Shown piece by piece: positions 5,820 through 23,466 of a DNA stretch of 64,000 nt. A model generated the notes under the pieces. It worked only from the letters and a program-made list of their open reading frames with translations, was not told the origin of the DNA and ran no database searches. The position numbers were made by a program, and so were the translations under genes. Within the stretch, counting starts at the first letter, position 1, and the number at the start of each line of letters is the position of its first letter. The DNA is from an uncultured Aliarcobacter sp. (lineage in GTDB: Bacteria > Campylobacterota > Campylobacteria > Campylobacterales > Arcobacteraceae), in NCBI GenBank assembly GCA_963664305.2, contig CAXXLV010000002.1, positions 320,001 to 384,000 of the forward strand, given 5' to 3'.

Positions 5820-7670
5820 ATGAAAAAGCTTGTCTTGGGTGTAGTAGCTATTTTGGTAGTTATTATTGCTGTAGTAGTTGGATTTAAAATAAAATCTGAT
5901 AGTTTTATAAATGCAAAAATTGAAGAGTTAAATAGTAATGGTTTTGTGGTTAAACATCAACAAACATCTAATTATTTAAAAACAAATGGTAATGGTCAAA
6001 TTGAAGTTGTTTATCCAGATAAAGTTACTTCTTATCTATTTGCTAAGATAAAAGATGATGAGTTAAGAAAAACTTTAGAAAAACAATATAATCTTCTTGA
6101 TACAGTAGAAAAAGTAGAAATTTTTGAGGGAATTACTTTTGATTATGATTTTGCTATTAATAATCTAAGTTTTGATGTAAACGCTAATGTATATTTATCT
6201 GCATTATCTAAAAAAGCTATGTATACTCTAACTCAAGAAGCAACAAATATTCCATCAAGTAAATGGTTAGTAGATTTCTTAAAAGATAAAAAACTAAAAA
6301 TCAGTATTGATAAAAATGCAAATTATAAACTAGCAGACATTGATACAGTTATTCCAAATTTAATGTTCTTCACTCTTAGAGGTTTAGAAGGAAATAGTAA
6401 GAATATGAAATTGGCTTTAGTAAAAATATCTGGTACAGAAAAATCAGATAAAGACTTTTTCCAATTAAATGATTTAAATCTTGATTATGATTTTGATGAT
6501 AAAAAAGAAGTTTCAAATGCAACTATTAAAAATATTGAGTTCCAAGATTATGATAATTCATTTAATGTAAAAAATATTTTAATAAGTTCAAATACAATAA
6601 AAGACGATGTTAATATCTCAGGAAAAAGTGGAATAGCTTTTGATGAGGTTAATGTAAAAAAATATGGTGAAGAAGTTGCAAATCTTAAAAAAACATCTTT
6701 AAATTTTGTTGTTGATAAATTACCAATAAAAAAATTAGATGAAATAACAAGTTATTTAGAAAATGAAAACTATCAAGATTATTTAAAAACATTGTTCCAA
6801 AGTGGTATATCAGTATCTTCAAATGGAAGTGCGACAAATTATATGGTTAAAGGTCAAAAAATATTTGATACTTTAAAATATGATTTATCTTTAGGATTAA
6901 ATAAAAATGGTTCAATTGAAGATGCAAAAAATATTAAAGATATTTTTGAAACTATCAAGTTAGTTATTAATTTAGATAATGAAACAGCACAAAATCTAAA
7001 AAATCTTTTAAATCTAAAACAACCTGATTCTCAAATAGATTTTATAGATGGACAAGATAATCTAAAAAAATTTGAAGCAGAGTTAAAAACTGATGGTGTT
7101 TATGTAAATGGTAAAAAAGTATTAGATGAAAAAGAGTTAGACCTTCCAAAGAAAAAAAGTTTTGATGATTCTCAATATTTAGGACAAAACACAAATGGTA
7201 AAGGTGTATTCTATGATTATGAATTAATTGGAAAAGACCTTTTAAAAGTGACTTTTAGATATATCCCTGATATGAATACAATTACAAGTGGTGGAATATC
7301 TGTATCTTTCCCTGAGTTAAAAGACGCAACTAGAATAAAAAAACATACAACAAATAGTTTTGATAAAATCAATTTTTATGATGCTGGAAGTGAAATCTGG
7401 AATGGTGGATTAGAAAAAAATATAATTTCATCATATTTATTAGTTGAAGGTTGGGATGAAAACTGGACAGATCCTACTATTGAAAAAGAGTTTAGTTTAG
7501 AAATTGATGTAAAAGATTTAGATGTTTTACAAATCAATTTAAGAGCAGGTGCTTTAAATGACTCAAATAATGGTGAAAAAGCATCAGAGATTGTTCCAGT
7601 TGATGGAGAATTAGATCAACAAAATTATCCTATCCAAATAGCTGACATTGAAATTTATAATCTAAAATAA
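5820..7670 (+). CDS. Membrane-anchored periplasmic protein, YdgA/DUF945-like, with an extra C-terminal domain
   Basis: N-terminal anchor, beta-rich body ending VYVNGK, then ~170 further aa. Confidence 0.5.
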   Translation: MKKLVLGVVAILVVIIAVVVGFKIKSDSFINAKIEELNSNGFVVKHQQTSNYLKTNGNGQIEVVYPDKVTSYLFAKIKDDELRKTLEKQYNLLDTVEKVEIFEGITFDYDFAINNLSFDVNANVYLSALSKKAMYTLTQEATNIPSSKWLVDFLKDKKLKISIDKNANYKLADIDTVIPNLMFFTLRGLEGNSKNMKLALVKISGTEKSDKDFFQLNDLNLDYDFDDKKEVSNATIKNIEFQDYDNSFNVKNILISSNTIKDDVNISGKSGIAFDEVNVKKYGEEVANLKKTSLNFVVDKLPIKKLDEITSYLENENYQDYLKTLFQSGISVSSNGSATNYMVKGQKIFDTLKYDLSLGLNKNGSIEDAKNIKDIFETIKLVINLDNETAQNLKNLLNLKQPDSQIDFIDGQDNLKKFEAELKTDGVYVNGKKVLDEKELDLPKKKSFDDSQYLGQNTNGKGVFYDYELIGKDLLKVTFRYIPDMNTITSGGISVSFPELKDATRIKKHTTNSFDKINFYDAGSEIWNGGLEKNIISSYLLVEGWDENWTDPTIEKEFSLEIDVKDLDVLQINLRAGALNDSNNGEKASEIVPVDGELDQQNYPIQIADIEIYNLK

Positions 7671-7677
7671 TAAAAAG

Positions 7678-7703
7678 ATATTAAGGTTTTTTAACCTTAA
7701 TAT
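7678..7703. terminator. Bidirectional terminator
   Basis: atattaaggtt-tttt-aaccttaatat 11-bp stem between convergent genes. Confidence 0.75.
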
Positions 7704-8168
7704 TTAAAATACAAATAGAAATAGATACATAAAAATACCCATAATTGAACTTACTGTTAAAGCAAAAAATATAGCTTTAGCAATTTTTCTATGTTTTTTT
7801 CCATTAAAATGATGATTTATATAATCTTTATAAGATGAAATAAATAAAAATAACCAACCACCTACAGCTGCAATTGCTATTAAAATATGTATTACTAAAA
7901 AAATTATCATAAAGTCATAAGAGATATTACTATATTTTGAATACTCTTCAAAACCACCTGTAATTCTAACTCCAATTTCAAAAATAACAATTATAAATAA
8001 AGATATACCTAAGATTATTGCTTGTGAAATTAGATGTTTTTCATACATCTTTTTTTTTGCAAGATAAATGCTAAAAGCTAACAAAAATGGAAGTATTGCA
8101 AAATAAACTGTTGCTAAATCTAAATAAAATGGAGCTTGTGTTCCTAAAAAACCTTCTGTAAAAAACAT
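7704..8168 (-). CDS. DUF420-family membrane protein
   Basis: 4 TM helices with conserved His residues (EKH, VIHIL, KHRK). Confidence 0.75.
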   Translation of the reverse strand: MFFTEGFLGTQAPFYLDLATVYFAILPFLLAFSIYLAKKKMYEKHLISQAIILGISLFIIVIFEIGVRITGGFEEYSKYSNISYDFMIIFLVIHILIAIAAVGGWLFLFISSYKDYINHHFNGKKHRKIAKAIFFALTVSSIMGIFMYLFLFVF

Positions 8169-8471
8169 CTATTTTAACTTTTTAGGAGGATTTTTCATTA
8201 TAACTTTTTCAATTAAAATAAATCCAAATGGAATAAGTGAATAAACAAAAAGTTGGAATCCTAAAAATTTCCATTTATATTTTTTCATAACCATATATAA
8301 GGCAATACAAAATAGAATAAATAAAATACCATGAGTCATTCCAGCAACTTTTACTGCTATTGGATAACCACCAAAATATTTTAAAGGCATTGCTATAAAT
8401 ACTAAGATTAAATATGAAAGACCTTCTACAAATGAAATCACTCTAAATCTAGTAAAAGTATCGTTTGTCAT
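8169..8471 (-). CDS. DUF3817-family membrane protein
   Basis: FRVISFVEGLSYL...MPLKY...GMTHG...SLIPFG. Confidence 0.85.
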   Translation of the reverse strand: MTNDTFTRFRVISFVEGLSYLILVFIAMPLKYFGGYPIAVKVAGMTHGILFILFCIALYMVMKKYKWKFLGFQLFVYSLIPFGFILIEKVIMKNPPKKLK

Positions 8472-8553
8472 GATTCTCCTTTTTTAAAAGATGTAGTATA
8501 GTGAACTTTGGTTTATGAAAGGTTAATATAGCGACATTATGTTACAATCGCGA

Positions 8554-10062
8554 ATGAAAAAAATTATACTTACAACATTAAACGCGAGATATTCTCACAC
8601 ATCTTTAGCTTTGAGATATTTATATGCAAATTTAAAAGAATTTAAAGAAGAAGCTAAAATTTTAGAGTTTGTTATAAACTCATCAAATCAAACAATAGCA
8701 GAACAAATACTTGAACATAAACCAAAGATAGTTGGAATTGCTGTTTATATTTGGAATGCAAGTGATGTTGCTGAACTTGTACAAACTATTAAAAAAGTAT
8801 CACCTGAAACGATAGTTGTTCTTGGAGGTCCTGAGGTTAGTTATACTCCTTTACGAGTAAATTTTGATATGGCTGATTATATAATCACAGGTGAGGGAGA
8901 AATAAGTTTTTACAATTTGTGTTTTGATATTTTAAATGGAAATTGTAAAGAAACAAGAGTTATAAATTCACCAAAAGTTGATTTAGAAAATATTGTTCTA
9001 CCATATGATGACTATACAGATTTTGATATCAAAAATAGACATATATATGTGGAAATGGCAAGAGGTTGTCCTTTTGAGTGTGAGTTTTGTTTATCATCAA
9101 TTGATTCAAAAATGAGATATTTATCAATTGAAGTTTTTTTAGAACAAATTGATAAATTATGGCAAAGAGGTGCAAGAAATTTCAAATTTATTGATAGAAC
9201 TTTTAATATCAAAATCTCTTATGCAAAAGCTATTTTAAACTATTTTTTAGAAAAAGAAGAAGAGTATTTTTTACACTTTGAAGTAATACCTGATAATTTC
9301 CCTGAAGAATTAAGAGAGTTAATCAAACAGTTTAAAGCTGGAAGTTTACAACTTGAAGTTGGTATTCAAACTCTAAATTTAGATGTTGCAAAAGAGATTC
9401 ATAGAAATCTAAGAATTGATAAAATAAAAGACAATCTAAAGTTTTTATCAACGGAAACACATGCTCATATGCATATAGATTTGATTATTGGGCTTCCAAG
9501 TGAAACTATTGAGAGTTTTGGGAAAAATCTTGATTTACTTTATACCCTTTCAACTGGTGAAATTCAAGTTGGAATTTTGAAGAAGTTATCAGGAACAACG
9601 CTAGATAGACATGACAAAATTTATGGAATGGTTTATAGTGATTTACCTCCTTATGATATTTTAAAAAATGATTTAATCGATTTTTCACAAATGCAAGAGA
9701 TGAAAAGATTTGCTAGATTTTGGGATATTGTTTACAATAGTGGAAATTTCCAAAAAACAACAGCTTTACTTTTTGAAGATGGAAAAGTTTTTGAAAATTT
9801 TTATGATTTAAGTAAGTGGCTTTATAGAAGAAGTGAATCTACTTATAAAATCTCACTTGATAGAATGGCTGAGTTTTTATTTGAATATATGAGTGCAAAA
9901 TTTGATAAAGAAAAAATTGCAAATATAATTTTGGAAGATGTTATGAAAGTAGGGGGAAGAAAAATTCCACCATTTTTAAAGAAAATTATTCCCGAAAACT
10001 ATGATTTTGCTCAAAAAGATGTATCAAAAGCAAATAAAAGGCAAGAGTTAAGAAAAGGATAA
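8554..10062 (+). CDS. B12-binding domain radical SAM protein
   Basis: LNARYSHTSLAL, VLGGPEVS, RGCPFECEFC (CxxxCxxC); start placed at MKKIIL. Confidence 0.9.
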   Translation: MKKIILTTLNARYSHTSLALRYLYANLKEFKEEAKILEFVINSSNQTIAEQILEHKPKIVGIAVYIWNASDVAELVQTIKKVSPETIVVLGGPEVSYTPLRVNFDMADYIITGEGEISFYNLCFDILNGNCKETRVINSPKVDLENIVLPYDDYTDFDIKNRHIYVEMARGCPFECEFCLSSIDSKMRYLSIEVFLEQIDKLWQRGARNFKFIDRTFNIKISYAKAILNYFLEKEEEYFLHFEVIPDNFPEELRELIKQFKAGSLQLEVGIQTLNLDVAKEIHRNLRIDKIKDNLKFLSTETHAHMHIDLIIGLPSETIESFGKNLDLLYTLSTGEIQVGILKKLSGTTLDRHDKIYGMVYSDLPPYDILKNDLIDFSQMQEMKRFARFWDIVYNSGNFQKTTALLFEDGKVFENFYDLSKWLYRRSESTYKISLDRMAEFLFEYMSAKFDKEKIANIILEDVMKVGGRKIPPFLKKIIPENYDFAQKDVSKANKRQELRKG

Positions 10063-11022: not shown

Positions 11023-12135
11023 TTAAGAGTTACTTTTTTTAAATTTTGAAAAGATATTTGAAATAAATGGAACTATTAAAACAACAACATAACCTACAAT
11101 CGCCCCTAAAACAATCTCACTTAAAAATCCTCCAAGAGGAATAGCTTTTAAAATCTCATCAAATGAGTGTAAAATATGTGTTTCGTGAGAGATAATTCCT
11201 CCTCCAACAGCAAGCATAGCAATCGTTCCTAAAATACCAATAGTTTTTATGATATAAGGCATTGATTTTACAAATCCATCACCAATAGTTTTTAATATTG
11301 CACTTTTTTTCTCTTGTAAATAAAATCCTATATCATCAAGTTTTATAATAAATGCAACAATCCCATATACAAAGATTGTTGTTAAAATCCCAACAAGAAA
11401 TAAAACAGAAACTTTTGTTAAAAAATCAGTATTTTCTATCAAACTAAGACTTATAACTATAATTTCAAAAGATAAAATAAAGTCAGTTTTTACTGCACTT
11501 TTTACTTTTGCATCTTCTAATTTTTCACTTGAAAGTTCTTTTATAGTCTCTTTAACATCATCTACTTCATGATGATTTCCAAATTTTTCTAAGATACTTT
11601 CAACCCCTTCATAAGCTAGATAGGCTCCCCCTAAAATTAAAATAGGACCAATAAGCCAAGGAGAGATATAACTTAAAAGTAAAACAACAGGAATAATGAT
11701 AAATTTATTTTTAAAACTTCCAAGTGCAATTTTATAAACAATAGGAAGTTCTCTAAGTGCTGCTTTTCTTTTTGCTTCAAGAATTGCTAAATTTCTAATA
11801 TTTTCAAGTTCAGCTAAAATCTTTTTTTGTTCATTAACATCAAGTTTTTCAATATTTTCTTTAAACTCTTCAACAGATTTTGCTTTTTCTAACTCTTTTT
11901 TCAAAATATCAGAAGTTGTTTCATTTGTAAAATTTGCAATAGCAGCTAAGTCATCAACTAAAAGACCACTAGATTTTACACTTGCAAGTTTTGTGTAAGT
12001 CGCAATATCATCAAACAGCAATCCTATATCATCGAGTGATGTTGCTAAACTTTTGGCAGTTGTTGCCATAGTTTTTCCAGCAAGTGAACTTATATCATCT
12101 GCTAAAACTGATAAATAGCCTAATATTCCAGCCAA
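11023..12135 (-). CDS. DUF808 (YedI-like) membrane protein with N-terminal insertion
   Basis: LFDDIA, RELPIV..IALGS.KNK, YEGVE, TDFILSFEI, IIKLDD, GTIAML.VGGGI. Confidence 0.85.
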   Translation of the reverse strand: MAGILGYLSVLADDISSLAGKTMATTAKSLATSLDDIGLLFDDIATYTKLASVKSSGLLVDDLAAIANFTNETTSDILKKELEKAKSVEEFKENIEKLDVNEQKKILAELENIRNLAILEAKRKAALRELPIVYKIALGSFKNKFIIIPVVLLLSYISPWLIGPILILGGAYLAYEGVESILEKFGNHHEVDDVKETIKELSSEKLEDAKVKSAVKTDFILSFEIIVISLSLIENTDFLTKVSVLFLVGILTTIFVYGIVAFIIKLDDIGFYLQEKKSAILKTIGDGFVKSMPYIIKTIGILGTIAMLAVGGGIISHETHILHSFDEILKAIPLGGFLSEIVLGAIVGYVVVLIVPFISNIFSKFKKSNS

Positions 12136-12262
12136 TTATAATCCTTCAAAATAATTTAATATGTAATGATATTTAATAGTTACTTAGAAAGATTTTTTAT
12201 TAAAAAATTTATTTGTATATTTTTTAAACACTAAAACTATTCAATAAAGATTAATTTTTATT

Positions 12263-12268
12263 TATAAT
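12263..12268 (+). promoter_or_regulatory. sigma70 -10 box of the guanidine operon
   Basis: TATAAT ~50 nt upstream of the aptamer, followed by agaggc/gcctct hairpin (12287-12304) at the predicted 5' end. Confidence 0.55.
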
Positions 12269-12316
12269 TACTTTATCAAACATGTTAGAGGCAATTTCGC
12301 CTCTTGAAGAACTGCA

Positions 12317-12410
12317 AAGATGGCTAGGGTTCCGAACTTTTTAAGTTGACTGGTCCGAGAGCTATCGACTCTTAAATTAGAGTTACACGGAGGGATAAAA
12401 GCCCGGGAGG
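12317..12410 (+). ncRNA. Guanidine-I (ykkC-yxkD) riboswitch aptamer
   Basis: P1 gatggct/agctatc with CTAGGGTTCCG and CTGGTCCGAG; P2 gactct/agagtt; 3' ACACGGAGGGATAAAAGCCCGGGAG; upstream of guanidine catabolic genes. Confidence 0.95.
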
Positions 12411-12440
12411 TGAAAACCTCTTACGTGTTTAATTTTATTT
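12405..12440 (+). terminator. Riboswitch expression platform (terminator-like hairpin overlapping aptamer 3' end)
   Basis: gggaggt-gaaa-acctctt followed by a T-rich tract; mutually exclusive with the ligand-bound P3 tail. Confidence 0.6.
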
Positions 12441-12451
12441 AGGAGTAATAC

Positions 12452-13528
12452 ATGAAACTTTCGATTTCAAAAATCTTTAAACTATTGTCATTGGCTGTTC
12501 TATTTTTAGGATTAACATCAACTTCGCTTTTTGCTGGAACAAAAAAAGATTTCAAAGTTGCTTGGAGTATCTATGTTGGTTGGATGCCTTGGGATGTTAT
12601 CGAATCTCAAAAAATCATGGATAAATGGGCTAAAAAATATGGAATTAATGTGCAAATAGTTCAAATAAATGATTATATAGAATCAATCAATCAATATAGT
12701 TCAGGTGAATTTGATGGTTGTGTAATGGCAAATACTGATGCATTAGGAATTCCTGCTGCTGGTGGAGTTGATTCAACTGCTTTAATCATTGGAGATTATT
12801 CAAACGGAAATGATGCTGTTATTTCTAAAACTGCAAAATCAATCAAAGATTTAAAAGGAACAAATATAAACCTTGTTGAGTTATCAATTTCTCACTATTT
12901 ATTAGCTCGAGCTTTAGAAAAAAATGGAATGAGTGAAAAAGATATAAAAGTTGTAAATACAAGTGATGCTGATATGGTTTCTGCTTATGCAACTGCTGAT
13001 GTTACAAGTGTTGTTACTTGGAAACCACAAGTGAGTGAAATTCAAAAAATGCCAAAAGCAAATACTATTTTTGATAGTTCAAAAATTCCTGGTGAGATTA
13101 TAGATTTAATGGTAGCTAACACTCAAACTTTAAAAGAAAATCCAGAATTTGGAAAAGCATTAGTTGGTGCTTGGTATGAAATGATGACTTTAATGACTTC
13201 TAACTCAAAAGAATCAATCGAAGCTAAAACAATTATGGCAAAGGCTTCTGGAACGGATTTAGCTGGATTTGAAGACCAATTAAAAACTACAAATATGTAT
13301 TACACACCAGCAGAAGCTGTAAAATTTAACAATAGTGATGAAATAGTAAAAACTATGGAGTTTGTTGCTAAATTCTCTTTTGACCATGGTTTATATGGTG
13401 AGGGTGCTAGTGATTATGGATTTGTAGGAATTGAGTTTCCAAATGGAAAAGTTATTGGAGATAAAGGAAATATCAAACTTAGATTTGATGATACATATAT
13501 GAAAATGGCACTAGAGGGAAAACTTTAA
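12452..13528 (+). CDS. ABC substrate-binding protein, urea-carboxylase-associated family (probably guanidine)
   Basis: Signal peptide; AWSIYVGWMPW, NDYIESINQY, DYSNGND, LVELSISHYLL; first gene under the riboswitch. Confidence 0.9.
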   Translation: MKLSISKIFKLLSLAVLFLGLTSTSLFAGTKKDFKVAWSIYVGWMPWDVIESQKIMDKWAKKYGINVQIVQINDYIESINQYSSGEFDGCVMANTDALGIPAAGGVDSTALIIGDYSNGNDAVISKTAKSIKDLKGTNINLVELSISHYLLARALEKNGMSEKDIKVVNTSDADMVSAYATADVTSVVTWKPQVSEIQKMPKANTIFDSSKIPGEIIDLMVANTQTLKENPEFGKALVGAWYEMMTLMTSNSKESIEAKTIMAKASGTDLAGFEDQLKTTNMYYTPAEAVKFNNSDEIVKTMEFVAKFSFDHGLYGEGASDYGFVGIEFPNGKVIGDKGNIKLRFDDTYMKMALEGKL

Positions 13529-13543
13529 TTTTTAGGAAAAAAT

Positions 13544-14356
13544 ATGAAAAGGTTAATAAATGAAATTCCATCAAAAACAACAAATATTTTTTTGGGATTA
13601 TTACCTTTTCTATTAATAGTGATAGTTTATATAGGTTCTTCAAATGCTAGACTTGCTGAAAATCCAAATGATAAACTATTGCCATCAATAGAAAAATGTA
13701 TTGAAAGTATGAGTAAATTGGCTTTTGAAGAGGATAAAAGAACTGGAAGTTATATCCTTTATGATGACACAGTTTCAAGTTTAAAAAGATTGGCTTTAGG
13801 TGTAGGAATTAGTGCAGTTATTGCTTTAGTTGTTGGTATTTCAATTGGAGTTATTCCTATGATTACTTCAACTTTATCGCCACTTATTTGGTTTTTTTCA
13901 CTGATTCCAACAATGGCAATTTTACCGATACTTTTTATAGTATTTGGTTTAGGTGAGATTTCAAAAGTAGTTTTGATTATCTTAGGAATTACACCAATTA
14001 TGATAAGAGATATTTATCAAAGAGTAAGAGAAATACCAAGTGAACAAATCATAAAAGTTCAAACTTTGGGAGCTAATACTTGGCAAATAATAACAAGAGT
14101 TGTAACTCCTCAAATATTTCCAAGATTGATTGATTCTATTAGATTGACTTTAGGAACTGCTTGGATATTTTTGATTTCAGCTGAAGCAATAGCTGCAACT
14201 GAGGGTTTAGGTTATAGAATATTTTTAGTACGAAGATATTTAGCTATGGATGTGATTTTACCTTATGTTGTATGGATTACACTTTTAGCATTTTTAATAG
14301 ATTTTGTTTTAAGACAATTTAATCAAAAACTATTTCCTTGGTTTGGAAAGGAGTGA
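13544..14356 (+). CDS. ABC permease (NitT/TauT type)
   Basis: EAA-like loop, AWIFLISAEAIA..GLGYRIFLVRRY. Confidence 0.9.
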   Translation: MKRLINEIPSKTTNIFLGLLPFLLIVIVYIGSSNARLAENPNDKLLPSIEKCIESMSKLAFEEDKRTGSYILYDDTVSSLKRLALGVGISAVIALVVGISIGVIPMITSTLSPLIWFFSLIPTMAILPILFIVFGLGEISKVVLIILGITPIMIRDIYQRVREIPSEQIIKVQTLGANTWQIITRVVTPQIFPRLIDSIRLTLGTAWIFLISAEAIAATEGLGYRIFLVRRYLAMDVILPYVVWITLLAFLIDFVLRQFNQKLFPWFGKE

Positions 14357-14358
14357 TT

Positions 14359-15096
14359 ATGGGATTAATTAAAGCAAAAAATATTTGGAAAAATTACGGT
14401 GATAATATAATCTTAGAAAAATTAAATTTTTCTATGAATAGTGGCGAGTTTTGTACTTTAGTTGGACCATCTGGTTGTGGTAAAAGTACATTTTTAAGAA
14501 TGTTATTAGGAATTGAACAACCCTCACGAGGTGAGTTGTTTTTTGAAGATAAAGAGTATCCAAAAGAGCCAAGTGATGATAGAGGAATAGTGTTTCAAAG
14601 ATATTCAACACTAAATCACTTAAATGTGATTGATAATGTAATTATTGGTTTAGAGTTCAAAAAGTCGCCATTTCTTGGGAAACTTTTTGGAAAAGCAAAA
14701 AAAGAGGCTTATGAAAAAGCTGATGAGATTTTAAAGGCAGTTGGTTTATATCACTCAAGAACTAAATATCCATATGAGTTAAGTGGTGGAATGAAACAAA
14801 GATTATCAATCGCTCAATCACTTGTAAAAGAGCCAAAACTTCTACTTTTAGATGAGCCATTTGGTGCACTTGACCCTGGAATTAGTAAAGATATGCATGA
14901 ATTACTTTTGGATATTCATTCAAAACTAAATTTTGGAGTTGTGATGGTAACTCATGATATTAGTGAAGCTTTTAAATTAGGAACAAGAGTTTTGGTATTT
15001 GACAAAATAAAAGTTGACGAGGATTTTCCAAATAGATATGGGTCAACAATTGTAAATGATATAGATTCAAGTAAGGAAAGAAAAAATGAGAAGTAA
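14359..15096 (+). CDS. ABC ATP-binding protein (NitT/TauT type)
   Basis: GPSGCGKST, LSGGMKQR, LLLDEPFGALD; start after aggag SD. Confidence 0.92.
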   Translation: MGLIKAKNIWKNYGDNIILEKLNFSMNSGEFCTLVGPSGCGKSTFLRMLLGIEQPSRGELFFEDKEYPKEPSDDRGIVFQRYSTLNHLNVIDNVIIGLEFKKSPFLGKLFGKAKKEAYEKADEILKAVGLYHSRTKYPYELSGGMKQRLSIAQSLVKEPKLLLLDEPFGALDPGISKDMHELLLDIHSKLNFGVVMVTHDISEAFKLGTRVLVFDKIKVDEDFPNRYGSTIVNDIDSSKERKNEK

Positions 15097-15805
15097 TAAA
15101 GTGGTTTTAAATGAAATTTTCCCTTCAAGTGTAAAATGGTCAAAAATCATTAAAAGAGGGCAAACAATACAACTAAAAGCAAAAGGTGAAAATGCAAGTT
15201 TAAGTGCTATGTTTTACAACGCTTCAAATGTAGCAGAAAGATTTAATAGTGCAGATACAGTAAAAATCCAATGGAATGCATTTTTAGGAAAAGAAAAAGT
15301 TCTGTTTTCTGAAATGGGTAGAGTTTTATTTGCAATTACGGAAGATTCTACTGATGGTTTATTTGATATTTTAGGTGGAATTTCAAATGAAAGAGTTATC
15401 AAAGAGAATTTTGGAGGAGAAGCAACTTATCAAAGTTGTAGAAATGGTTACTATAAAAGTGATAAAGAAAACTTTTTAATAGAGCTTGGAAAATATGGAA
15501 TGACAAAAAAAGATTTAATTCCAGCACTAAATCTATTTAGAAAAGTAGATGTAAAAGATGGTTCAAAACTTGTATTAAGTGATAGAAAAGCAAAGAAAGA
15601 TGATGTTATAGAATTAACAGCACACATGGATGTTTTACTTGTATTATCAAATACACCTCACGCTATGGATAAAAGTGGAGTTTATGAGCCAAGTGATATT
15701 GAAATTACTATTTTTGATAGTGTTGAATTTAAAGATGAAGATTATAAAAACTATAGTGATGAAGCTAAAAGAGGCTTTATAAATACAAATAGATATTTTG
15801 TGTAA
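15086..15805 (+). CDS. cgdA: Carboxyguanidine deiminase subunit A (DUF1989)
   Basis: ERFNSADTVKIQW, LFSEMGRVL, SNTPH; paired with cgdB. Confidence 0.85.
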   Translation: MRSNKVVLNEIFPSSVKWSKIIKRGQTIQLKAKGENASLSAMFYNASNVAERFNSADTVKIQWNAFLGKEKVLFSEMGRVLFAITEDSTDGLFDILGGISNERVIKENFGGEATYQSCRNGYYKSDKENFLIELGKYGMTKKDLIPALNLFRKVDVKDGSKLVLSDRKAKKDDVIELTAHMDVLLVLSNTPHAMDKSGVYEPSDIEITIFDSVEFKDEDYKNYSDEAKRGFINTNRYFV

Positions 15806-15815
15806 GGATTAAAAG

Positions 15816-16436
15816 ATGTCAAAAAATATAGAAAATGCAATTTATAATGAAAAATTACCATCAGGTCTTCCATGGGCAGGTGTTATTAAAAAAGGGCAAA
15901 CTTTCAGAATTGTTGATTTAGAAGGTTGTCAAGCAGTAGATACACTTTTTTACAATAACGATAATTACAATGATAGATATAGTGCAAATGATACTATTAG
16001 AGAACAAGGAAGTATTTTTATTACTACTGGAACAAAACTTATTTCAATAGATGATAATGTGTTAATGGAAATTACAGAAGATACTTGTGGAAATCACGAT
16101 ACTTTAGGTGGACATTGTAGTGCTGAAAGTAATAGTGTTAGATTTGGTTTAGATAAAAAATATATGCATTCTTGTAGAGATAATTACTTAACAATTGCGG
16201 CACAACTTGAAATGAGTCCAAAAGATATTACAAATAATATTAACTTTTTTATGAATGTACCAGTTGAAGAAAATGGACATTTAGCAATAGTTGATGGTAT
16301 CTCAAAACCAGGTGATTATGTGGAAATGGTAGCACATATGGATACATTAGTTTTAATTTCAAATTGTCCACAATTAAACAATCCATGTAATGGATATAAC
16401 CCAACTCCAATACAATTAATTATTTGGGACAAATAG
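15816..16436 (+). CDS. cgdB: Carboxyguanidine deiminase subunit B (DUF1989)
   Basis: DLEGCQAVD, HDTLGGHCSAESN, HSCRDN, NFFMNVPV, SNCPQLNNPCN. Confidence 0.9.
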   Translation: MSKNIENAIYNEKLPSGLPWAGVIKKGQTFRIVDLEGCQAVDTLFYNNDNYNDRYSANDTIREQGSIFITTGTKLISIDDNVLMEITEDTCGNHDTLGGHCSAESNSVRFGLDKKYMHSCRDNYLTIAAQLEMSPKDITNNINFFMNVPVEENGHLAIVDGISKPGDYVEMVAHMDTLVLISNCPQLNNPCNGYNPTPIQLIIWDK

Positions 16437-16468
16437 TTAGTTAAAAGCCCAAAAGAGCTAATTCTTTT

Positions 16469-16513
16469 TATCTTATTAGACGACTTATAAGATATATTCA
16501 TACGGGACGGCCC
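16469..16513 (+). ncRNA. Guanidine-II (mini-ykkC) riboswitch, operon-internal
   Basis: Two hairpins with G-C closed ACGR tetraloops: tatcttattag-ACGA-cttataagata and ggg-ACGG-ccc, 9-nt linker, 13 nt before the aagga SD of the carboxylase. Confidence 0.85.
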
Positions 16514-16537
16514 CAAATTATACTTCAAGGATATAAA

Positions 16538-19500
16538 GTGTTTAAAAGAGTATTAATTGCAAATAGAGCTGAGATTGCAAATAGAGTAATTAGAACTTTA
16601 AAAAAGATGGGTATTGAGTCAGTTGCGATTTATAGTGAGGCAGATAAACATGCTTCATTTGTACGAAATGCAAATATAAGTGTACAACTTCATGGAACTA
16701 CACTAGAAGAGACTTACCTAAACTATAAAAAAATTATTGAGATTTGTAAAGAGTATAATGTTGATGCTATTCATCCAGGATATGGGTTTTTAAGTGAAAA
16801 TGTAAATTTTGTAAAAGAGTGTGAAAAAAATGGAATTATATTTATTGGTCCCACTTCTAAACAGATAGAAGATTTTGGATTAAAACATACAGCACGAGAT
16901 ATTGCAAAAGCAAATAATGTACCATTGTTAGAGGGAAGTGAACTTCTTACTAGTTTAGAAATGGCAAAAGAAGTTGCAAACACTATTTATTATCCAGTTA
17001 TGTTAAAAAGTACTGCAGGTGGTGGTGGAATAGGAATGAAACTTTGCTTTAATGAAGAAGAGTTAGTTCAAGCTTATGAAAGTGTTATAAAACTTGCTAC
17101 TTCAAACTTTAGTAATGGTGGAGTTTTTTTAGAAAAATATATCGAAACTGCACGTCATATTGAAGTTCAAATCTTTGGTGATGGAAATGGGAATGTTAAA
17201 ACTTTAGGTGAGAGAGATTGTTCAATTCAAAGAAGAAATCAAAAAGTTATAGAAGAAACACCAGCACCAAATATTAGTGATGAGTTAAGAAAAGAGTTAT
17301 TTGAAGCTTCAAAAAAACTAGCACTTGCAGTAAATTATAAAAGTGCTGGAACTGTTGAGTATATCTATGATACAAAAACAAATAAGTTTTACTTTCTAGA
17401 AGTTAATACAAGATTACAAGTTGAACATGGAATTACTGAAGAGGTATGTGGGGTTGATTTAGTTGAGTGGATGATAAGAATTGCATATGGTGATAACAAA
17501 CCACTACTTGATTATATTCATAATCCAAAAGGTCATGCAATACAACTAAGAGTTTATGCAGAAGATGCAAGTAAAAATTTCCAACCAAGTACTGGACTAA
17601 TTACAAAAGTTGAGTTTCCAAAAGATTTAAGAATAGATACATGGATTGAAGATGGATGTGAGGTAAGTCCATTTTATGACCCACTTTTAGCAAAACTTAT
17701 TTCTTATGGAAAAAATAGAGAAGAAAATTTAGAAAAACTACAAGAGGTTTTAAAAACTTCAAAAATCTATGGAATTGAATCAAATCTATCATATTTAGAA
17801 GCAATTTTAAAACAAGATTTTTTTAAAAATTCAAGCTTTTACACAAAAGTATTAGAGAAGTTAGAATACAAACCTTTTAAAGTTGATATTTTAAAATCAG
17901 GAACAATGACATCAATCCAAGATTATCCTGCACGTCAAAACTTCTGGGCAGTTGGTATTCCACCATCTGGAGCTATGGACAATCTAACACCAAGACTTTT
18001 AAATCATTTACTAAAAAATGATGAAAAAGCTGCTTTTATAGAGATGACTTTTATGGGAGCTACTTTTAAATTTAGAAATTCTACAACTATTTCTTTTGGT
18101 GGAGCAGATATGCAAGCAACATTAAATGGAAATAGTGTAGAGATGTATAAAGCTATAAATGTAAAAGAAAACGATGTTTTAGAGTTTAAAAAAGTTATTG
18201 GAAATGGAAATAGAACATATTTAGCTATCAAAGGTGGTTTTGATGTTGCTTCATATCTAGGAAGCTCTTCAACATTTACTTTAGGTGAGTTTGGAGGACA
18301 CTCAGGACGTGCGCTTAAAGCTGGTGACGTGTTAAACTATTTTGAAACTAAAGATGAGGTTTATGAAGAGCTTGCAAATAAAATAAATTTAGTAAATGAG
18401 TGGGAAATTGGTGTTGTTTATGGTCCTCATGGAAGCCCAGATTTCTTTACAACTGAAGATATAAAAGAGTTTTTTGCTACTTCTTGGGAAGTTCACTTTA
18501 ACTCAAGTAGAACAGGAGTTAGATTAATAGGACCAACTCCAAAATGGGCAAGAAATGATGGAGGAGAAGCTGGACTTCATCCTTCAAATATCCATGACAA
18601 TGCTTACGCTTTTGGAACAATAGATTTTACAGGAGATATGCCAGTAATATTAGGACCTGATGGTCCAAGTCTTGGAGGATTTGTTTGTCCTGCAACAATT
18701 ATCTCTTGTGAATTACATAAAATTGGTCAGCTTAAAACTGGTGATAAAATAAAGTTTAAACCTCTTTGTTTAGAAAACGCAGATTTGATGAATTTAGCTT
18801 TTGAAAAAGCAATTAAAGCAAATGAAGTTTTACCAAATTTGGCTGATTTTATTATTGATTTTGATGAAGAAAAAGCAACGCCAATTATAAAAACTTTTAA
18901 TTATAAAGAGTTAGATTTAGATATTGTTATTAGAAGTGCTGGAAATGAGTTTGTATTAGTTGAAGCTGGAGAGTTAAAACTTGATATTGAATTAAGATTT
19001 TTTATTCATGCTCTAATGACTTATATTGAAGAGAAAAATTTAACTTCAATCATTGATTTAACTCCAGGTATTAGAAGTTTACAAATCCATTTTAACTCTT
19101 TAGAGATAGATAGAAGTGAGATTTTAAAACTTGTAGAAGAAGCGATAAATTCTTTAAAAGATATTGAAAATTTAGAAGTAGAATCACGAACAGTTTATTT
19201 ACCACTTTCTTGGAATGACCCATCAATCCAATTAGCAATTGATAAATATCAACAAGGAGTACGACCAAATGCACCTTGGTGTCCTTCAAATATTGAGTTT
19301 ATTAGAAGAATAAATGGACTTAAAGATGTTGATGAAGTACAAAGAATTATTTTAGATGCGTCCTATTTAGTTATGGGATTAGGAGATGTTTATTTAGGAG
19401 CTCCTGTTGCTACTCCACTAAATCCAGCTCATAGAATGGTTACAACAAAATATAATCCAGCAAGAACTTGGACAGCTCAAAATTCTGTTGGAATTGGTGG

Positions 19501-20134
19501 AGCTTATATGTGTGTTTATGGTATGGAAGGACCAGGAGGTTATCAACTTTTTGGAAGAACTTTACAAATGTGGAACACATATAGAAGTACAAATGAGTTT
19601 ACAAAACCTTGGTTATTAAGATTCTTTGACCAAGTTCGGTTTTATTTAGTTTCAAGTGATGAGTTACATGATATTAGAGAGAAGTTTTTATATGGAAAAT
19701 ATCCTTTAAAAATTGAAAATGGAACATTTAAACTAAAAGAGTATAAAGAGTTTTTAGAAAACAACAAAAAAGAGCATACAAGTTTCCAATCAATGCGAAA
19801 ACAAGCTTTTGAAGATGAAAGATTGATGTGGAAAGAAAAAGGACTTGATAAATTTAATGTTCAAGCTGATGTTATTGAAGTAAAAAATGAGATTGTTTTA
19901 AATGAGAATGAAGAAGCCGTTGAATCTATCATGTCTGGAAATATTTGGAAAATTGAAGTTAAAGAGGGAGATAAAGTAAAAGCTGGTGAAGTTTTAGTTA
20001 TTTTAGAATCAATGAAAATGGAAGTTGATATTGAAACAAATATTAGTGGAACGGTTGAAAAAATTCTTTTTAAAGAGGGTGATAATATAAATTCTGGTGA
20101 TGTTTTAGTAATCATCAAAAAGGATGAAAAATGA
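16538..20134 (+). CDS. uca: Urea/guanidine carboxylase (biotin-dependent)
   Basis: Biotin carboxylase (ANRAEIA, HPGYGFLSEN, GGGGIGM), CT domain (HPSNIHD, KYNPART), biotinyl ESMKME; GTG start. Confidence 0.95.
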   Translation: MFKRVLIANRAEIANRVIRTLKKMGIESVAIYSEADKHASFVRNANISVQLHGTTLEETYLNYKKIIEICKEYNVDAIHPGYGFLSENVNFVKECEKNGIIFIGPTSKQIEDFGLKHTARDIAKANNVPLLEGSELLTSLEMAKEVANTIYYPVMLKSTAGGGGIGMKLCFNEEELVQAYESVIKLATSNFSNGGVFLEKYIETARHIEVQIFGDGNGNVKTLGERDCSIQRRNQKVIEETPAPNISDELRKELFEASKKLALAVNYKSAGTVEYIYDTKTNKFYFLEVNTRLQVEHGITEEVCGVDLVEWMIRIAYGDNKPLLDYIHNPKGHAIQLRVYAEDASKNFQPSTGLITKVEFPKDLRIDTWIEDGCEVSPFYDPLLAKLISYGKNREENLEKLQEVLKTSKIYGIESNLSYLEAILKQDFFKNSSFYTKVLEKLEYKPFKVDILKSGTMTSIQDYPARQNFWAVGIPPSGAMDNLTPRLLNHLLKNDEKAAFIEMTFMGATFKFRNSTTISFGGADMQATLNGNSVEMYKAINVKENDVLEFKKVIGNGNRTYLAIKGGFDVASYLGSSSTFTLGEFGGHSGRALKAGDVLNYFETKDEVYEELANKINLVNEWEIGVVYGPHGSPDFFTTEDIKEFFATSWEVHFNSSRTGVRLIGPTPKWARNDGGEAGLHPSNIHDNAYAFGTIDFTGDMPVILGPDGPSLGGFVCPATIISCELHKIGQLKTGDKIKFKPLCLENADLMNLAFEKAIKANEVLPNLADFIIDFDEEKATPIIKTFNYKELDLDIVIRSAGNEFVLVEAGELKLDIELRFFIHALMTYIEEKNLTSIIDLTPGIRSLQIHFNSLEIDRSEILKLVEEAINSLKDIENLEVESRTVYLPLSWNDPSIQLAIDKYQQGVRPNAPWCPSNIEFIRRINGLKDVDEVQRIILDASYLVMGLGDVYLGAPVATPLNPAHRMVTTKYNPARTWTAQNSVGIGGAYMCVYGMEGPGGYQLFGRTLQMWNTYRSTNEFTKPWLLRFFDQVRFYLVSSDELHDIREKFLYGKYPLKIENGTFKLKEYKEFLENNKKEHTSFQSMRKQAFEDERLMWKEKGLDKFNVQADVIEVKNEIVLNENEEAVESIMSGNIWKIEVKEGDKVKAGEVLVILESMKMEVDIETNISGTVEKILFKEGDNINSGDVLVIIKKDEK

Positions 20135-21459
20135 ATTTAAATATTAAAGATTTAAGAGCAAAATATTTAAGTGGTGAAGTTACAGTAAAAGAAGTAATTT
20201 TATCTATTTTTGAAAAAATTGAGCAAACAAGAGATTCTAATATTTGGATTTATACTTTAACTGAAGATGAAATAAGTTTTTATTTAAAAAATTTAGAAAA
20301 TAAAAATATAGAGGATTTACCACTTTATGGTATTCCTTTTGCTATAAAAGATAATATTGATTTAGTAAATATTCCTACAACAGCTGCTTGTCCTGAATTT
20401 TCTTATACTCCAAAAAAATCAGCTTTTGTGGTTGAAAAGTTAATCCAAGCTGGAGCTATTCCAATTGGAAAAACAAATCTTGACCAATTTGCAACAGGAC
20501 TTGTGGGAACACGAAGTCCTTATGGAGAGTGTAGAAATTCAATAAACAAAGAGTATATCTCTGGTGGTTCAAGCTCAGGAAGTGCAGTTGCAGTAGCACT
20601 TGAAATGGCTAGTTTTTCACTTGGAACTGATACTGCTGGAAGTGGAAGAGTTCCAGCTGCTTTTAATAATCTAATAGGATTAAAAGCTACAAAAGGAGTT
20701 ATTAGTACAAGTGGTGTAGTTCCTGCTTGTAGAAGTTTGGACTGTGTGACGGTTTTTGCAAAAGATTTAAGTTCGATAGAAGAGGTATTTAAAGTTGCAA
20801 ATGCTTATGATGAAGAGGATATTTATAGTAGACATTATGAAAAAGTAGAGTTTGAAGAAAAAGCAAAATTTTCTTTTGCTATTCCAAAAAAAGAGCAATT
20901 AAAATTCTTTGGTGATGAGGAATCAAAAAATCTATTTGAAGAAGCTATTAAAAAGTTTGAAAGTCTAGGTGGAAAGGCTTTTGAAATTGATTATGAACCA
21001 TTTAATGAAAGTGCAAACTTACTTTATAGTGGACCTTGGGTAACGGAGAGATTTATAGCTATAAAAGAGGTTATTACAAAAACTTCAGATGTTGTTGAGC
21101 AAACAGTTAGAAAAATCATAAGTGGTGGAGAAAATATAAATGCTATCAACTATTTTGAATCAGAATATATCTTGAAAAAGAATAGAAAAAAAGCTGAAAA
21201 GTTGTTTGAAGAGTTTGATTTTATGTTAACACCAACAACAGGAACAATTTATAAAATAGAAGAAGTAAACAACAATCCAATAGAACTTAATACAAATCTT
21301 GGATATTACACAAATTATATGAATCTACTTGATTTATCTGCAATTGCAGTTCCTGCTGGAAATAGAGTAAATGGTTTGCCTTTTGGAGTTACGGTTGTAG
21401 CAAAAAACTTTGAAGAAGAAAAACTATTAAGTTATGCTTCAAAATATCTAGGAGTTTAA
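20131..21459 (+). CDS. atzF: Allophanate hydrolase, amidase domain
   Basis: FAIKDNID, GKTNLDQFATGLVGTRSPY, GGSSSGSA, GTDTAGSGRVPA. Confidence 0.95.
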   Translation: MNLNIKDLRAKYLSGEVTVKEVILSIFEKIEQTRDSNIWIYTLTEDEISFYLKNLENKNIEDLPLYGIPFAIKDNIDLVNIPTTAACPEFSYTPKKSAFVVEKLIQAGAIPIGKTNLDQFATGLVGTRSPYGECRNSINKEYISGGSSSGSAVAVALEMASFSLGTDTAGSGRVPAAFNNLIGLKATKGVISTSGVVPACRSLDCVTVFAKDLSSIEEVFKVANAYDEEDIYSRHYEKVEFEEKAKFSFAIPKKEQLKFFGDEESKNLFEEAIKKFESLGGKAFEIDYEPFNESANLLYSGPWVTERFIAIKEVITKTSDVVEQTVRKIISGGENINAINYFESEYILKKNRKKAEKLFEEFDFMLTPTTGTIYKIEEVNNNPIELNTNLGYYTNYMNLLDLSAIAVPAGNRVNGLPFGVTVVAKNFEEEKLLSYASKYLGV

Positions 21460-21460
21460 A

Positions 21461-21862
21461 ATGAATGAAAATGAGATTTTAATCGGTGTTTGTGGAGCTC
21501 ATATGAGTGGATTGCCTTTAAATTGGCAATTAATAGATTTAGAAGCTACTTTTGTAAAAAAATGTAAAACAAAAAAAGGTTATAGACTTTTTTTACTTGA
21601 AAATAAAACTCCTATTAGACCTGGTATGATTTATGATAGTTCTGTTAAAAGTCAATTAGAACTTGAAGTTTGGTCTATGAATGTGGAAAACTTTGGAAAG
21701 TTTATGAAACAAATAGCAAGTCCACTTGGAATAGGAACAGTATTTTTAGAAGATGAAAGTAGTGTTTATGGCTTTTTATGTGAAGCAGATTATGTAAAAA
21801 ACTCAAAAGAGATAACAAGTTTAGGAAGCTGGAGAAACTTCTTATGTCAGCAACAACAATAG
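21461..21862 (+). CDS. Allophanate hydrolase C-terminal (GGCT-like) domain as a separate gene
   Basis: VCGAHMSGLPLNWQL, YRLF, RPGM, EVW, PLGIGTV, GFLCE, GSWR. Confidence 0.9.
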   Translation: MNENEILIGVCGAHMSGLPLNWQLIDLEATFVKKCKTKKGYRLFLLENKTPIRPGMIYDSSVKSQLELEVWSMNVENFGKFMKQIASPLGIGTVFLEDESSVYGFLCEADYVKNSKEITSLGSWRNFLCQQQQ

Positions 21863-22170
21863 CTTGGATTTATCTTTTTATAGCTGGACTTCTTGAAGCT
21901 TTTTGGGCAATTGGTTTGAAATATAGTGAAGGCTTTTCAAAACCAATTCCTACTATTTTGACTTTATGTTTGGTAGTTTCAAGTTTTTTTCTTCTTTCAA
22001 AAGCTATGAAAGTATTACCAGTTAGTTTTGCTTATGCAATTTGGTGTGCAATAGGAATAGTTAGTTTGGTTTTAATAGAGTATTTTTATCTAAATGGTGT
22101 TTTGAATTTTCAAAAAATCATCTCTATACTTTTTATTTTGATTGGAATTGTAGGTTTAAAAATATCATAG
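21844..22170 (+). CDS. gdx: SMR-family transporter, Gdx/SugE-like
   Basis: WIYLFIAGLLEAFWAIGLKYSEGF, AYAIW, GIVGLK; last gene of the guanidine operon. Confidence 0.8.
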   Translation: MSATTIAWIYLFIAGLLEAFWAIGLKYSEGFSKPIPTILTLCLVVSSFFLLSKAMKVLPVSFAYAIWCAIGIVSLVLIEYFYLNGVLNFQKIISILFILIGIVGLKIS

Positions 22171-22230
22171 TATTAAGAAGATGCACTTAAAGCTTTATAT
22201 ATAATACGAAAAAAATATAAAGAGATTGAT

Positions 22231-23466
22231 TTGAATGATATTTATGATTGTATAGTTATTGGTGGTGGACCTGCTGGAATTTTAGCCAGTATTAGTTGTG
22301 CTAGTGAAAAGAACTCCGTTTTACTTCTTGAAAAACTTCCAAAAATTGCAGCTAAACTAAAAGCTACTGGTGGAGGAAAATGTAATCTTACAAACACTCT
22401 TTCAACTGAAGAATTTATGGCAAAATTTGGTAAAAATGGTCGTTTTATGAGCCATGCAATAGATACTTTTAATGCAACAGATTTAAGAGATTTTTTTGCT
22501 AAAATTGGAGTTGAAACAATCGCCCGAGATGGATTTAGAGTATTTCCTGTAAATCATAGTTCAAGTATAATTTTAAGTGCATTAGATGAAGAGTTAGAAA
22601 GAGTTGGAGTGGAAGTTGAGTGTTCAGTTGCTATTGAAACTATAAAAAAAGAAGAAGATATTTTTATCATTATTTCAAAAGATAAAATCTACAAATCAAA
22701 AAATATCATCATAGCAACTGGAGGTTTGGGTTATCCAATCTTAGGAGCAACTGGTGATGGATATATTTATGCTAAAGATTTTGGTCATAAAATCACTTCA
22801 ACTCATCCTGCTATGATGCCACTTATTACAAAAGAAAAAAACTTCGCTTCATGTAAAGCTGATACAATCGCAAAAGCTATATTAAAAGTAAATATTCCAA
22901 AATACAAAAACTTAAAACTTGTTGGTGATTTGATTTTTACAAAAGAGGGTTTACGAGGTCCAGTTATTTTGGATTTTGCTAGAGAAATTACTCCTATTTT
23001 AGAAAAACACAATGAAGTTCCACTTTTGATAAACTTTTTAAAAGGTAAAAATGAAGAAGAGATTTTTACTCACTTAAAAAATGAAATAGCAAAAAATCCA
23101 ACAAATACTATCTTAGAAAATTTAGAAACTCTACTTGCAACTGGTGTAGCAACTGAGATTTTAAATATTTGTGAAATAGAAACAAGTTTAAGATTTAAAC
23201 AAATAGAAGGAATTAAAAGAGAAAAATTAGTTAAAACATTAGCTTGGACACCTTTTACAATTGTAGGACATGAAGGTTTTAAAAATGCCATGATAACAAG
23301 AGGTGGAGTTGAACTAAAAGAGATTGATTCAAAAACAATGCAAAGTAAAATAATAGATGGTTTGTACTTTTGTGGGGAAGTTGTAAATATAGATGGACCA
23401 TGTGGTGGATATAATCTTCAATGGTCTTTTTCAAGTGGCTTTTTAGCAGGAAAATTAAGAAAATAA
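22231..23466 (+). CDS. HI0933/YhiN-family flavoprotein
   Basis: GGGPAG, TGGGKCNLTN, ATGG..YP..GATGDG, GPCGGYNLQ. Confidence 0.92.
   Translation: MNDIYDCIVIGGGPAGILASISCASEKNSVLLLEKLPKIAAKLKATGGGKCNLTNTLSTEEFMAKFGKNGRFMSHAIDTFNATDLRDFFAKIGVETIARDGFRVFPVNHSSSIILSALDEELERVGVEVECSVAIETIKKEEDIFIIISKDKIYKSKNIIIATGGLGYPILGATGDGYIYAKDFGHKITSTHPAMMPLITKEKNFASCKADTIAKAILKVNIPKYKNLKLVGDLIFTKEGLRGPVILDFAREITPILEKHNEVPLLINFLKGKNEEEIFTHLKNEIAKNPTNTILENLETLLATGVATEILNICEIETSLRFKQIEGIKREKLVKTLAWTPFTIVGHEGFKNAMITRGGVELKEIDSKTMQSKIIDGLYFCGEVVNIDGPCGGYNLQWSFSSGFLAGKLRK

Follow-up and report, generated by a model that had tools for sequence, protein, structure and literature searches.

Guanidine-I and guanidine-II riboswitch motifs in a probable guanidine carboxylase operon of an uncultured Aliarcobacter

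For Vreelandella (Halomonas) boliviensis LC1, "like in several other bacteria", a class I guanidine riboswitch is described as preceding the guanidine degradation operon and a class II riboswitch as lying in front of the carboxylase gene gca (Sinn et al., Nat Commun 2025, PMC12508155). The apparent dissociation constants (KDs) for guanidine are given there as 44 ± 9 µM for the class I element and 93 ± 6 µM for the class II element, and the whole operon is reported to be induced on guanidine. According to a review (PMC12186494), three enterobacteria have importer and carboxyguanidine deiminase genes behind a guanidine-I element, and carboxylase and allophanate hydrolase genes immediately downstream behind a guanidine-II element. 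Here, we describe a corresponding cluster in a window of 64,000 nucleotides (nt) from an uncultured Aliarcobacter sp. (contig CAXXLV010000002.1, positions 320,001–384,000). Region 12263–22170 of this window (plus strand, as for all window features below) contains genes for an ABC importer, two carboxyguanidine deiminase subunits (cgdA and cgdB), a biotin-dependent carboxylase (uca, also known as gca), an allophanate hydrolase (atzF), and an exporter (gdx). This region is very probably a standard guanidine carboxylase pathway operon with the published two-riboswitch design, found here in an Arcobacteraceae-type Campylobacterota genome. An earlier, sequence-only reading of this DNA had recognized two guanidine riboswitch classes in one cluster, with class I at the head and class II immediately upstream of the carboxylase gene, and our analysis bears this out. 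The same reading took the arrangement to be undescribed, which does not hold, as it is already in print for V. boliviensis (PMC12508155) and the three enterobacteria (PMC12186494). The two-switch layout is correctly identified and is an ordinary new example of a published design, and thus carries little weight as a discovery.

The resemblance to the V. boliviensis LC1 operon, as described by Sinn et al., includes the class I element in the 5' untranslated region (UTR), the class II element in the spacer between cgdB and gca, the genes (ABC importer, cgdA/B, gca, and atzF), and the proposed action of the two switches (class I transcriptional, class II translational). However, the window has no mgdH/mgdL, a gdx-type exporter is the last gene, and the allophanate hydrolase is encoded in two open reading frames (ORFs). 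Moreover, the class II element in the window is AU-rich and scores below the Rfam cut-off, and the host belongs to Campylobacterota rather than Gammaproteobacteria. The enterobacterial operons, which were compared by their description in the review and not by sequence, have the same order of switches and genes in a different phylum. Compared with the guanidine-II elements of exporter genes (Escherichia coli sugE and Pseudomonas aeruginosa; Focht et al., 2023, PMC10351892), the element in the window has the same two G-C-closed ACGR-loop hairpins, the same short and variable linker, and the same location just before a ribosome-binding site. The exporter-gene elements are described as lying in 5' UTRs, whereas the one examined here lies between two cistrons, and the platform helix P0b described for P. 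aeruginosa is undetectable in it. Finally, the tandem riboswitch logic gates (guanine-PRPP and tandem glycine; PMC7266159) also place two sensing RNAs on one gene set. Those are described as standing side by side with one shared expression platform, whereas in the window, two classes that share a ligand are separated by about 4 kb and presumably act at different levels.

At the head of the operon, a guanidine-I riboswitch aptamer (12313–12411) matches RF00442 over model positions 1–107 of 107 and scores 90.8 bits (gathering score, 63 bits). This is the sole above-threshold Rfam match in a scan of the window and the sole RF00442 match in the 2.78-Mb genome, which was the target of all whole-genome Rfam searches. 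The aptamer ends 41 nt upstream of the start of the first importer gene, and a guanidine-I element is present at the operon head in all eight relatives that have the head on the contig. A predicted expression platform (12405–12440), read from the sequence and the minimum free energy (MFE) fold, consists of a 7-pair hairpin (12405–12422) and a U-rich tail. The first bases of this hairpin are shared with the 3' end of the aptamer, and its arms are invariant in 9/9 loci of the guanidine-I leader alignment. The MFE fold of 12280–12455 has a z score of −3.77. The Shine-Dalgarno (SD) sequence (12441–12445) and the ATG (12452) of the importer gene are downstream of, and outside, the platform hairpin. 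The platform is probably a ligand-sensitive terminator; the leader layout fits the usual terminator competition, which would place its action at the level of transcription.

Upstream of the aptamer, a second hairpin of six pairs (12287–12304) appears in both the MFE and the centroid folds. A hairpin is found at this position in 9/9 aligned loci, with changes in the arm letters. Its arms resemble those of hairpin 12405–12422 on the 3' side of the aptamer, which could allow the strands to exchange pairing partners around the aptamer, and the upstream hairpin is possibly an extra part of the expression platform. About 45 nt before the aptamer, a −10-like TATAAT box at 12263–12268 may belong to the operon promoter; this site is not listed by a consensus promoter scan of 11900–22600. 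RNA evidence was available as assembled contigs from RNA-labelled libraries of relatives with approximately 90–95% identity, from which starts, ends, and levels are not readable. The contigs of two such studies stop at approximately 12289–12338, either shortly before the aptamer or inside its 5' edge, which weakly hints at a transcript start nearby.

The guanidine-II element is located in the 101-nt gap between cgdB and uca (16437–16537), the sole internal gap of more than 15 nt in the operon. Within this gap, 16472–16514 matches RF01068 with 17.6 bits (E value 0.27 in 401 nt), and this is the sole RF01068 match at E ≤ 10 in the genome. Two GACGRC cores spaced 12–42 nt apart occur once in the 64 kb when both strands are considered, and in 0/100 shuffles. 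Hairpin P1 (16469–16494; found from sequence, Rfam, and RNAalifold) has 10 pairs with one U-U mismatch and an ACGA loop at 16480–16483. It is followed by a linker of 9 nt (16495–16503) and by hairpin P2 (16504–16513; found from sequence and Rfam), which has a GGG/CCC stem and an ACGG loop at 16507–16510. The translation start of uca (16527–16540) comprises the SD sequence AAGGA (16527–16531) and a GTG codon (16538), and the N-terminus of the protein aligns with those of relatives. The SD sequence and the start codon are 13 and 24 nt downstream of the P2 end, respectively. Across 29 Campylobacterota loci, the distance from P2 to the start codon is 19–28 nt and the linker is 4–16 nt long. The guanidine-II linker has been described as unstructured with a length of seven or more nt (PMC11423145); the 9-nt linker in the window and the position before the ribosome site agree with what defines class II.

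Comparison with related loci provides further evidence for this element. Both ACGR loops are closed by G-C in the window. In an alignment of 10 close-relative loci, both hairpins are kept before the carboxylase start and both loops fit ACGR in 10/10. Three P1 pairs are changed on both sides. Overall, 90% of the alignment cells are paired, compared with 29–62% when the partners are slid, and 0/500 shuffles reach the covariation score. The three G-C pairs of P2 are invariant in 10/10 loci and, because they never vary, provide no covariation information either way. In addition, RNAalifold predicts P1 and P2 unprompted from this alignment. At the position of the window element, four of the six loci scanned with Rfam reach the RF01068 cut-off (L048, L049, L052, and L062; 33.1–39.7 bits for these orthologous motifs before uca). 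On this comparative evidence, the two hairpins are a real guanidine-II element and not a chance occurrence, as the sequence-only reading had proposed when it placed a guanidine-II motif in the only sizeable gap. Against the low score of 17.6 bits stand the single match in the genome, the absence of the core pattern from shuffles, and the conservation with compensatory changes.

Several results weigh against this interpretation of the two elements and of their action. A simple terminator scan (11900–22600) does not call the leader hairpin at 12405–12422, in which the U tract is interrupted. The claim of a guanidine-I aptamer with a terminator-like platform at the head thus stands firmly for the aptamer; the platform is fairly called terminator-like but is passed over by the scan. 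For guanidine-II, 17.6 bits is far below the Rfam gathering score of 32 bits, which is a search convention and not a biological feature. Between the two Rfam models that the sequence-only reading had named, ykkC-yxkD (RF00442) is above its cut-off and mini-ykkC (RF01068) below. P1 contains a U-U mismatch and P2 has only three pairs, and the gap folds no more stably than its shuffles do (z −0.10). In the published class II model, kissing of the ligand-bound loops is described as pulling apart a P0b helix that the 5' and 3' tails make together (PMC10351892). A P0b-type helix between the 5' tail and the ribosome-site region was sought in 29 loci with RNAduplex, with shuffled tails for comparison, and the median z was +0.53 with 0/29 below −1.64. 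Forcing P1 and P2 to form left the opening energy of the ribosome site unchanged in the same number of loci (mean 0.02 kcal/mol), with changes above +0.5 in 3/29 loci and below −0.5 in 3/29. A P0-type helix as in the P. aeruginosa model was rejected, being unsupported by the tail-duplex energies in these 29 loci, and the secondary-structure calculations gave no other helix that could mask the ribosome site.

The protein-coding genes are those expected for the pathway, and family scans agree with the order ABC-cgdA-cgdB-uca-atzF-atzF(C)-gdx given by the sequence-only reading. The importer genes encode a substrate-binding protein (12452–13528; TIGR03427, 536 bits against 333.9), a permease (13544–14356; PF00528, with TauC/SsuC-like matches below their cut-offs), and an ATPase (14338–15096; PF00005). 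The carboxyguanidine deiminase subunits are encoded by cgdA (15086–15805; UAAP1, DUF1989; TIGR03425, 251 bits against 205.95; PF09347) and cgdB (15816–16436; UAAP2, DUF1989; TIGR03424, 335 bits against 284.7), with the putative function of cgdA assigned from the literature. The product of uca (16538–20134; TIGR02712, 1752 bits against 1303.85) has biotin carboxylase, carboxyltransferase, and biotinyl domains. This carboxylase is annotated as "urea"; the two riboswitches, the neighboring cgdAB genes, and the literature suggest that it would prefer guanidine. The allophanate hydrolase is encoded by an N-terminal amidase ORF (20131–21459; NF006043, 620.8 bits, positions 6–444 of 600; PF01425) and by a C-terminal domain ORF in another frame with its own SD sequence (21461–21862; PF21986 AH_C; NF006043 positions 469–598), which jointly cover the AtzF profile. 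The matches to TIGR03427, TIGR03425, TIGR03424, TIGR02712, and NF006043 are all above the curated cut-offs. The last gene encodes a gdx/sugE-type small multidrug resistance (SMR) exporter (21844–22170; PF00893; NF008512 SugE, 94.4 bits, below the cut-off of 126).

From uca to gdx, the genes abut or overlap, in agreement with the sequence-only reading. The uca and atzF genes share 4 nt, with the ATG of atzF overlapping the uca stop; 1 nt separates the two atzF ORFs, and the first 19 nt of gdx lie within the preceding ORF. The distal genes have their own SD sequences inside the preceding ORFs. Given these overlapping and abutting stops and starts, translational coupling of the distal genes to uca is plausible. 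All 10 close loci share the split of the allophanate hydrolase. More broadly, among loci with both parts, the gene is split in 17/22 from Campylobacterota, with a frame offset of 1 or 2, and fused in 28/28 from other phyla. Judging from these comparisons, the split is apparently a stable and natural one rather than a sequencing error. The operon, which opens with an importer, closes with a gdx-type exporter for the same compound. This terminal exporter is present in the Arcobacteraceae loci, and in other lineages it is absent or placed elsewhere. Downstream of gdx, a 60-nt gap contains TATAAT (22199–22204) and is followed on the same strand by an aminoacetone oxidase family gene (22231–23466), which probably has its own promoter.

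The operon is patchy among relatives. The CgdB protein was sought in 61 genomes, G000 counted in, and found in 10 including G000, namely in 8/36 others of the genus and 1/24 others of the order. For a wider survey, one genome per species was scanned with a CgdB alignment, which provided 80 loci with approximately 1 Mb of sequence. By their labels, the closest of these loci belong to Arcobacteraceae and other Campylobacterota, and the remoter ones to Alphaproteobacteria, Verrucomicrobiota, Acidobacteriota, and Armatimonadota. A covariance model made from the nine guanidine-I aptamers of the aligned loci gave 50 guanidine-I matches in 46/80 loci, all on the gene strand. For guanidine-II, a rule of our own (two GACGRC cores 12–65 nt apart, with three or more consecutive pairs, or 5/6) gave 48 motifs on the gene strand within the approximately 1 Mb, compared with 6 on the opposite strand. 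The distance from a motif to uca was measured between the C that closes the P2 loop and the base at which the uca match begins. Rfam gathering thresholds were checked in 10 of the 80 loci, and the counts beyond these rest on our own rules. In these 10 loci, all 11 guanidine-I matches were confirmed and 5 of the 13 guanidine-II motifs found by the rule reach the cut-off.

Campylobacterota account for 37 of the survey loci. The importer head is held by 33 of these, all with guanidine-I (33/33), and the uca start by 34, among which 29 have a guanidine-II motif 25–33 nt before uca. When both regions are present (n = 32), 27 loci have both switches and five have guanidine-I alone. Of the five loci without guanidine-II, four are from Sulfuricurvum and one is the Arcobacteraceae locus L034, in which the cgdB-uca spacer is only about 14 nt (7615–7635). 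Across the whole survey, 43 loci have the importer head and the uca start, with both classes in 33, class I only in five, and neither in five. The genome survey for both classes in one operon that the sequence-only reading had suggested was thus positive.

The internal guanidine-II motif varies in its location. In Alphaproteobacteria (Parvibaculum and Zavarzinia), class II lies between the importer genes and cgdA and not before uca. A cgdA-proximal motif is found approximately 180–240 nt before the cgdA match in L065, L069, L071, L072, L075, L082, L083, L086, L094, and L099, and the one in L082 reaches the Rfam cut-off (41.4 bits). Furthermore, three loci labelled as Helicobacteraceae or Sulfurimonadaceae (L048, L049, and L052) have three switches per cluster: a guanidine-I element heads the genes, a guanidine-II-like motif precedes cgdA, and guanidine-II (33–36 bits) precedes uca (in L048, 6195–6227 and 9473–9515). 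The internal motif is always behind the importer genes, before uca in Campylobacterota or before cgdA in Alphaproteobacteria, with both in these three loci. Guanidine-II before uca is also described in the literature for Gammaproteobacteria (PMC12508155, PMC12186494). Taken together, these patterns leave room for a tentative and rather doubtful proposal that the internal guanidine-II is a movable module under selection and part of a general two-tier design, not an accident of one lineage.

Several other variations were observed among the survey loci. In L044, L045, L054, and L060, a second guanidine-I element is located approximately 1.6 kb upstream of the operon head, before one more gene. 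Between cgdB and guanidine-II, L048 has genes for a fatty-acid-desaturase-family membrane protein and a metallo-beta-lactamase-fold protein (7626–8633 and 8643–9425). In genome G058, an EamA-family transporter gene lies between uca and atzF (L031, 1901–2782, minus strand). The spacer between the ATPase gene and cgdA is approximately 97–130 nt with a small hairpin in some relatives (L024, 7881–7979; L027, 3695–3792), and the window genes overlap at this junction (15074–15091). No ACGR motif was found in this spacer in the relatives examined. The RNA-library contigs of one relative have 128–130 extra letters at the same junction.

Based on these findings, we infer how the operon responds to its ligand, at which level each switch acts, and that the genes are co-transcribed and coupled. 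The guanidine-I element in the 5' leader would most likely switch transcription on. Bound guanidine would keep the 3' end of the aptamer from the terminator-like hairpin, such that polymerase could read into the importer genes and cgdAB. In guanidine-II, the two ACGR-loop hairpins would kiss when each binds a guanidinium ion, and this element, 24 nt before the GTG, would most likely increase the initiation of uca translation. Both allophanate hydrolase ORFs, and gdx after them, may then follow via their overlapping and abutting starts and stops. Because the distal half would need guanidine twice, for the transcript and for translation, its response is expected to be steeper and more AND-like than that of the proximal half.

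The purpose of such dual control may be explained in more than one way. According to the sequence-only reading, the operon is a two-threshold circuit. Low guanidine would suffice for the more sensitive class I switch to turn on import and CgdAB, and a weaker, cooperative class II switch would release the costly carboxylase, the hydrolase, and the exporter only at clearly higher levels. Class II is cited as binding two ligands cooperatively with a Hill coefficient of 1.4, and the P. aeruginosa switch is reported to respond in the low millimolar range (PMC10351892). The location of the internal switch, always behind the importer genes, also speaks for this explanation. However, in V. boliviensis, the only operon we found with both elements measured, the reported KDs of 44 and 93 µM differ two-fold (PMC12508155), such that well-separated thresholds are not favored. 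Moreover, CgdAB acts after the carboxylase, and making it first has no metabolic logic, and five Campylobacterota loci do without the class II switch. We found no discussion of such a model in the literature searched, which does not by itself establish that none exists. Overall, we consider this explanation unlikely.

A somewhat less likely explanation is a split in specificity, in which the head switch would be strict for guanidine and the internal class II switch would also accept substituted guanidines such as methylguanidine, such that the distal genes would answer to a wider set of compounds. In V. boliviensis, class II is reported to bind guanidine and methylguanidine alike (93 and 83 µM, respectively) and class I to reject methylguanidine; this difference in ligand specificity is what Sinn et al. 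stress, with the combined control presented as a subject for further study (PMC12508155). In the window, by contrast, no methylguanidine-converting genes adjoin uca, and the distal switch would be powerless unless the strict head switch lets the transcript through.

It is improbable that the cluster consists of two independent transcription units, the first ending at a hairpin and U run after cgdB and the second, uca-atzF-gdx, having its own promoter and riboswitch. A 5-pair AU-rich hairpin followed by U's is present at 16452–16467 and ends 1 nt before P1, with covariation according to RNAalifold in the alignment of 10 close loci. However, this hairpin is weak (z −0.24 in the window). Across the 29 loci, a hairpin next to P1 is often predicted, with a median z of −0.89 and 9/29 below −1.64. 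The U's follow it in AT-rich genera, and GC-richer relatives have no U run after the hairpin preceding P1. It is not called by the terminator scan, and as a candidate terminator it was set aside as unsupported. In the consensus scans of 11900–22600, there were 38 promoter-like sites against a shuffle mean of 52.9 and four terminator-like sites against 3.1, none at either platform. No promoter-like site stands out and none supports an internal promoter for uca, and the hairpin leaves no space for a promoter before P1. In L034, the spacer of about 14 nt has no room for a promoter, which argues that uca depends on upstream transcription in that locus at least. RNA-library contigs bridge the cgdB-uca junction (X13, 15276–19947; X12, 16302–19981; X1, 15620–19329), which weakly hints at one transcript. 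RNA-labelled libraries may contain DNA, and contigs cannot prove a single transcript; because contigs do not show levels, differences in depth between the operon halves were not used. The description of V. boliviensis also treats its case as one operon with all proteins rising together (PMC12508155).

The least credible explanation, that the gap hairpins are chance structures in AT-rich DNA, could draw on the Rfam score under the cut-off and on a fold no stabler than shuffles, and is already contradicted by the single genome match at the expected place, the absence of the core pattern from 100 shuffles, the conserved compensatory changes, and the orthologous motifs above the cut-off.

The standard pathway operon with two guanidine switches has modest implications for this lineage and for annotation. 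Campylobacterota also have the two-switch design, and as a rule (27/32 loci with both regions). The AU-rich guanidine-II elements fall below the Rfam cut-off, as in the window and in 8 of the 13 motifs in the ten loci checked, such that their number is underestimated by automatic annotation. The purpose of sensing a single ligand at two points of an operon is left to future experiments in the description of V. boliviensis itself (PMC12508155). If the internal guanidine-II is indeed a movable module, the leader would license import, while catabolism and export would need a second, cooperative confirmation of intracellular guanidine, and the response may thereby be sharpened or delayed.

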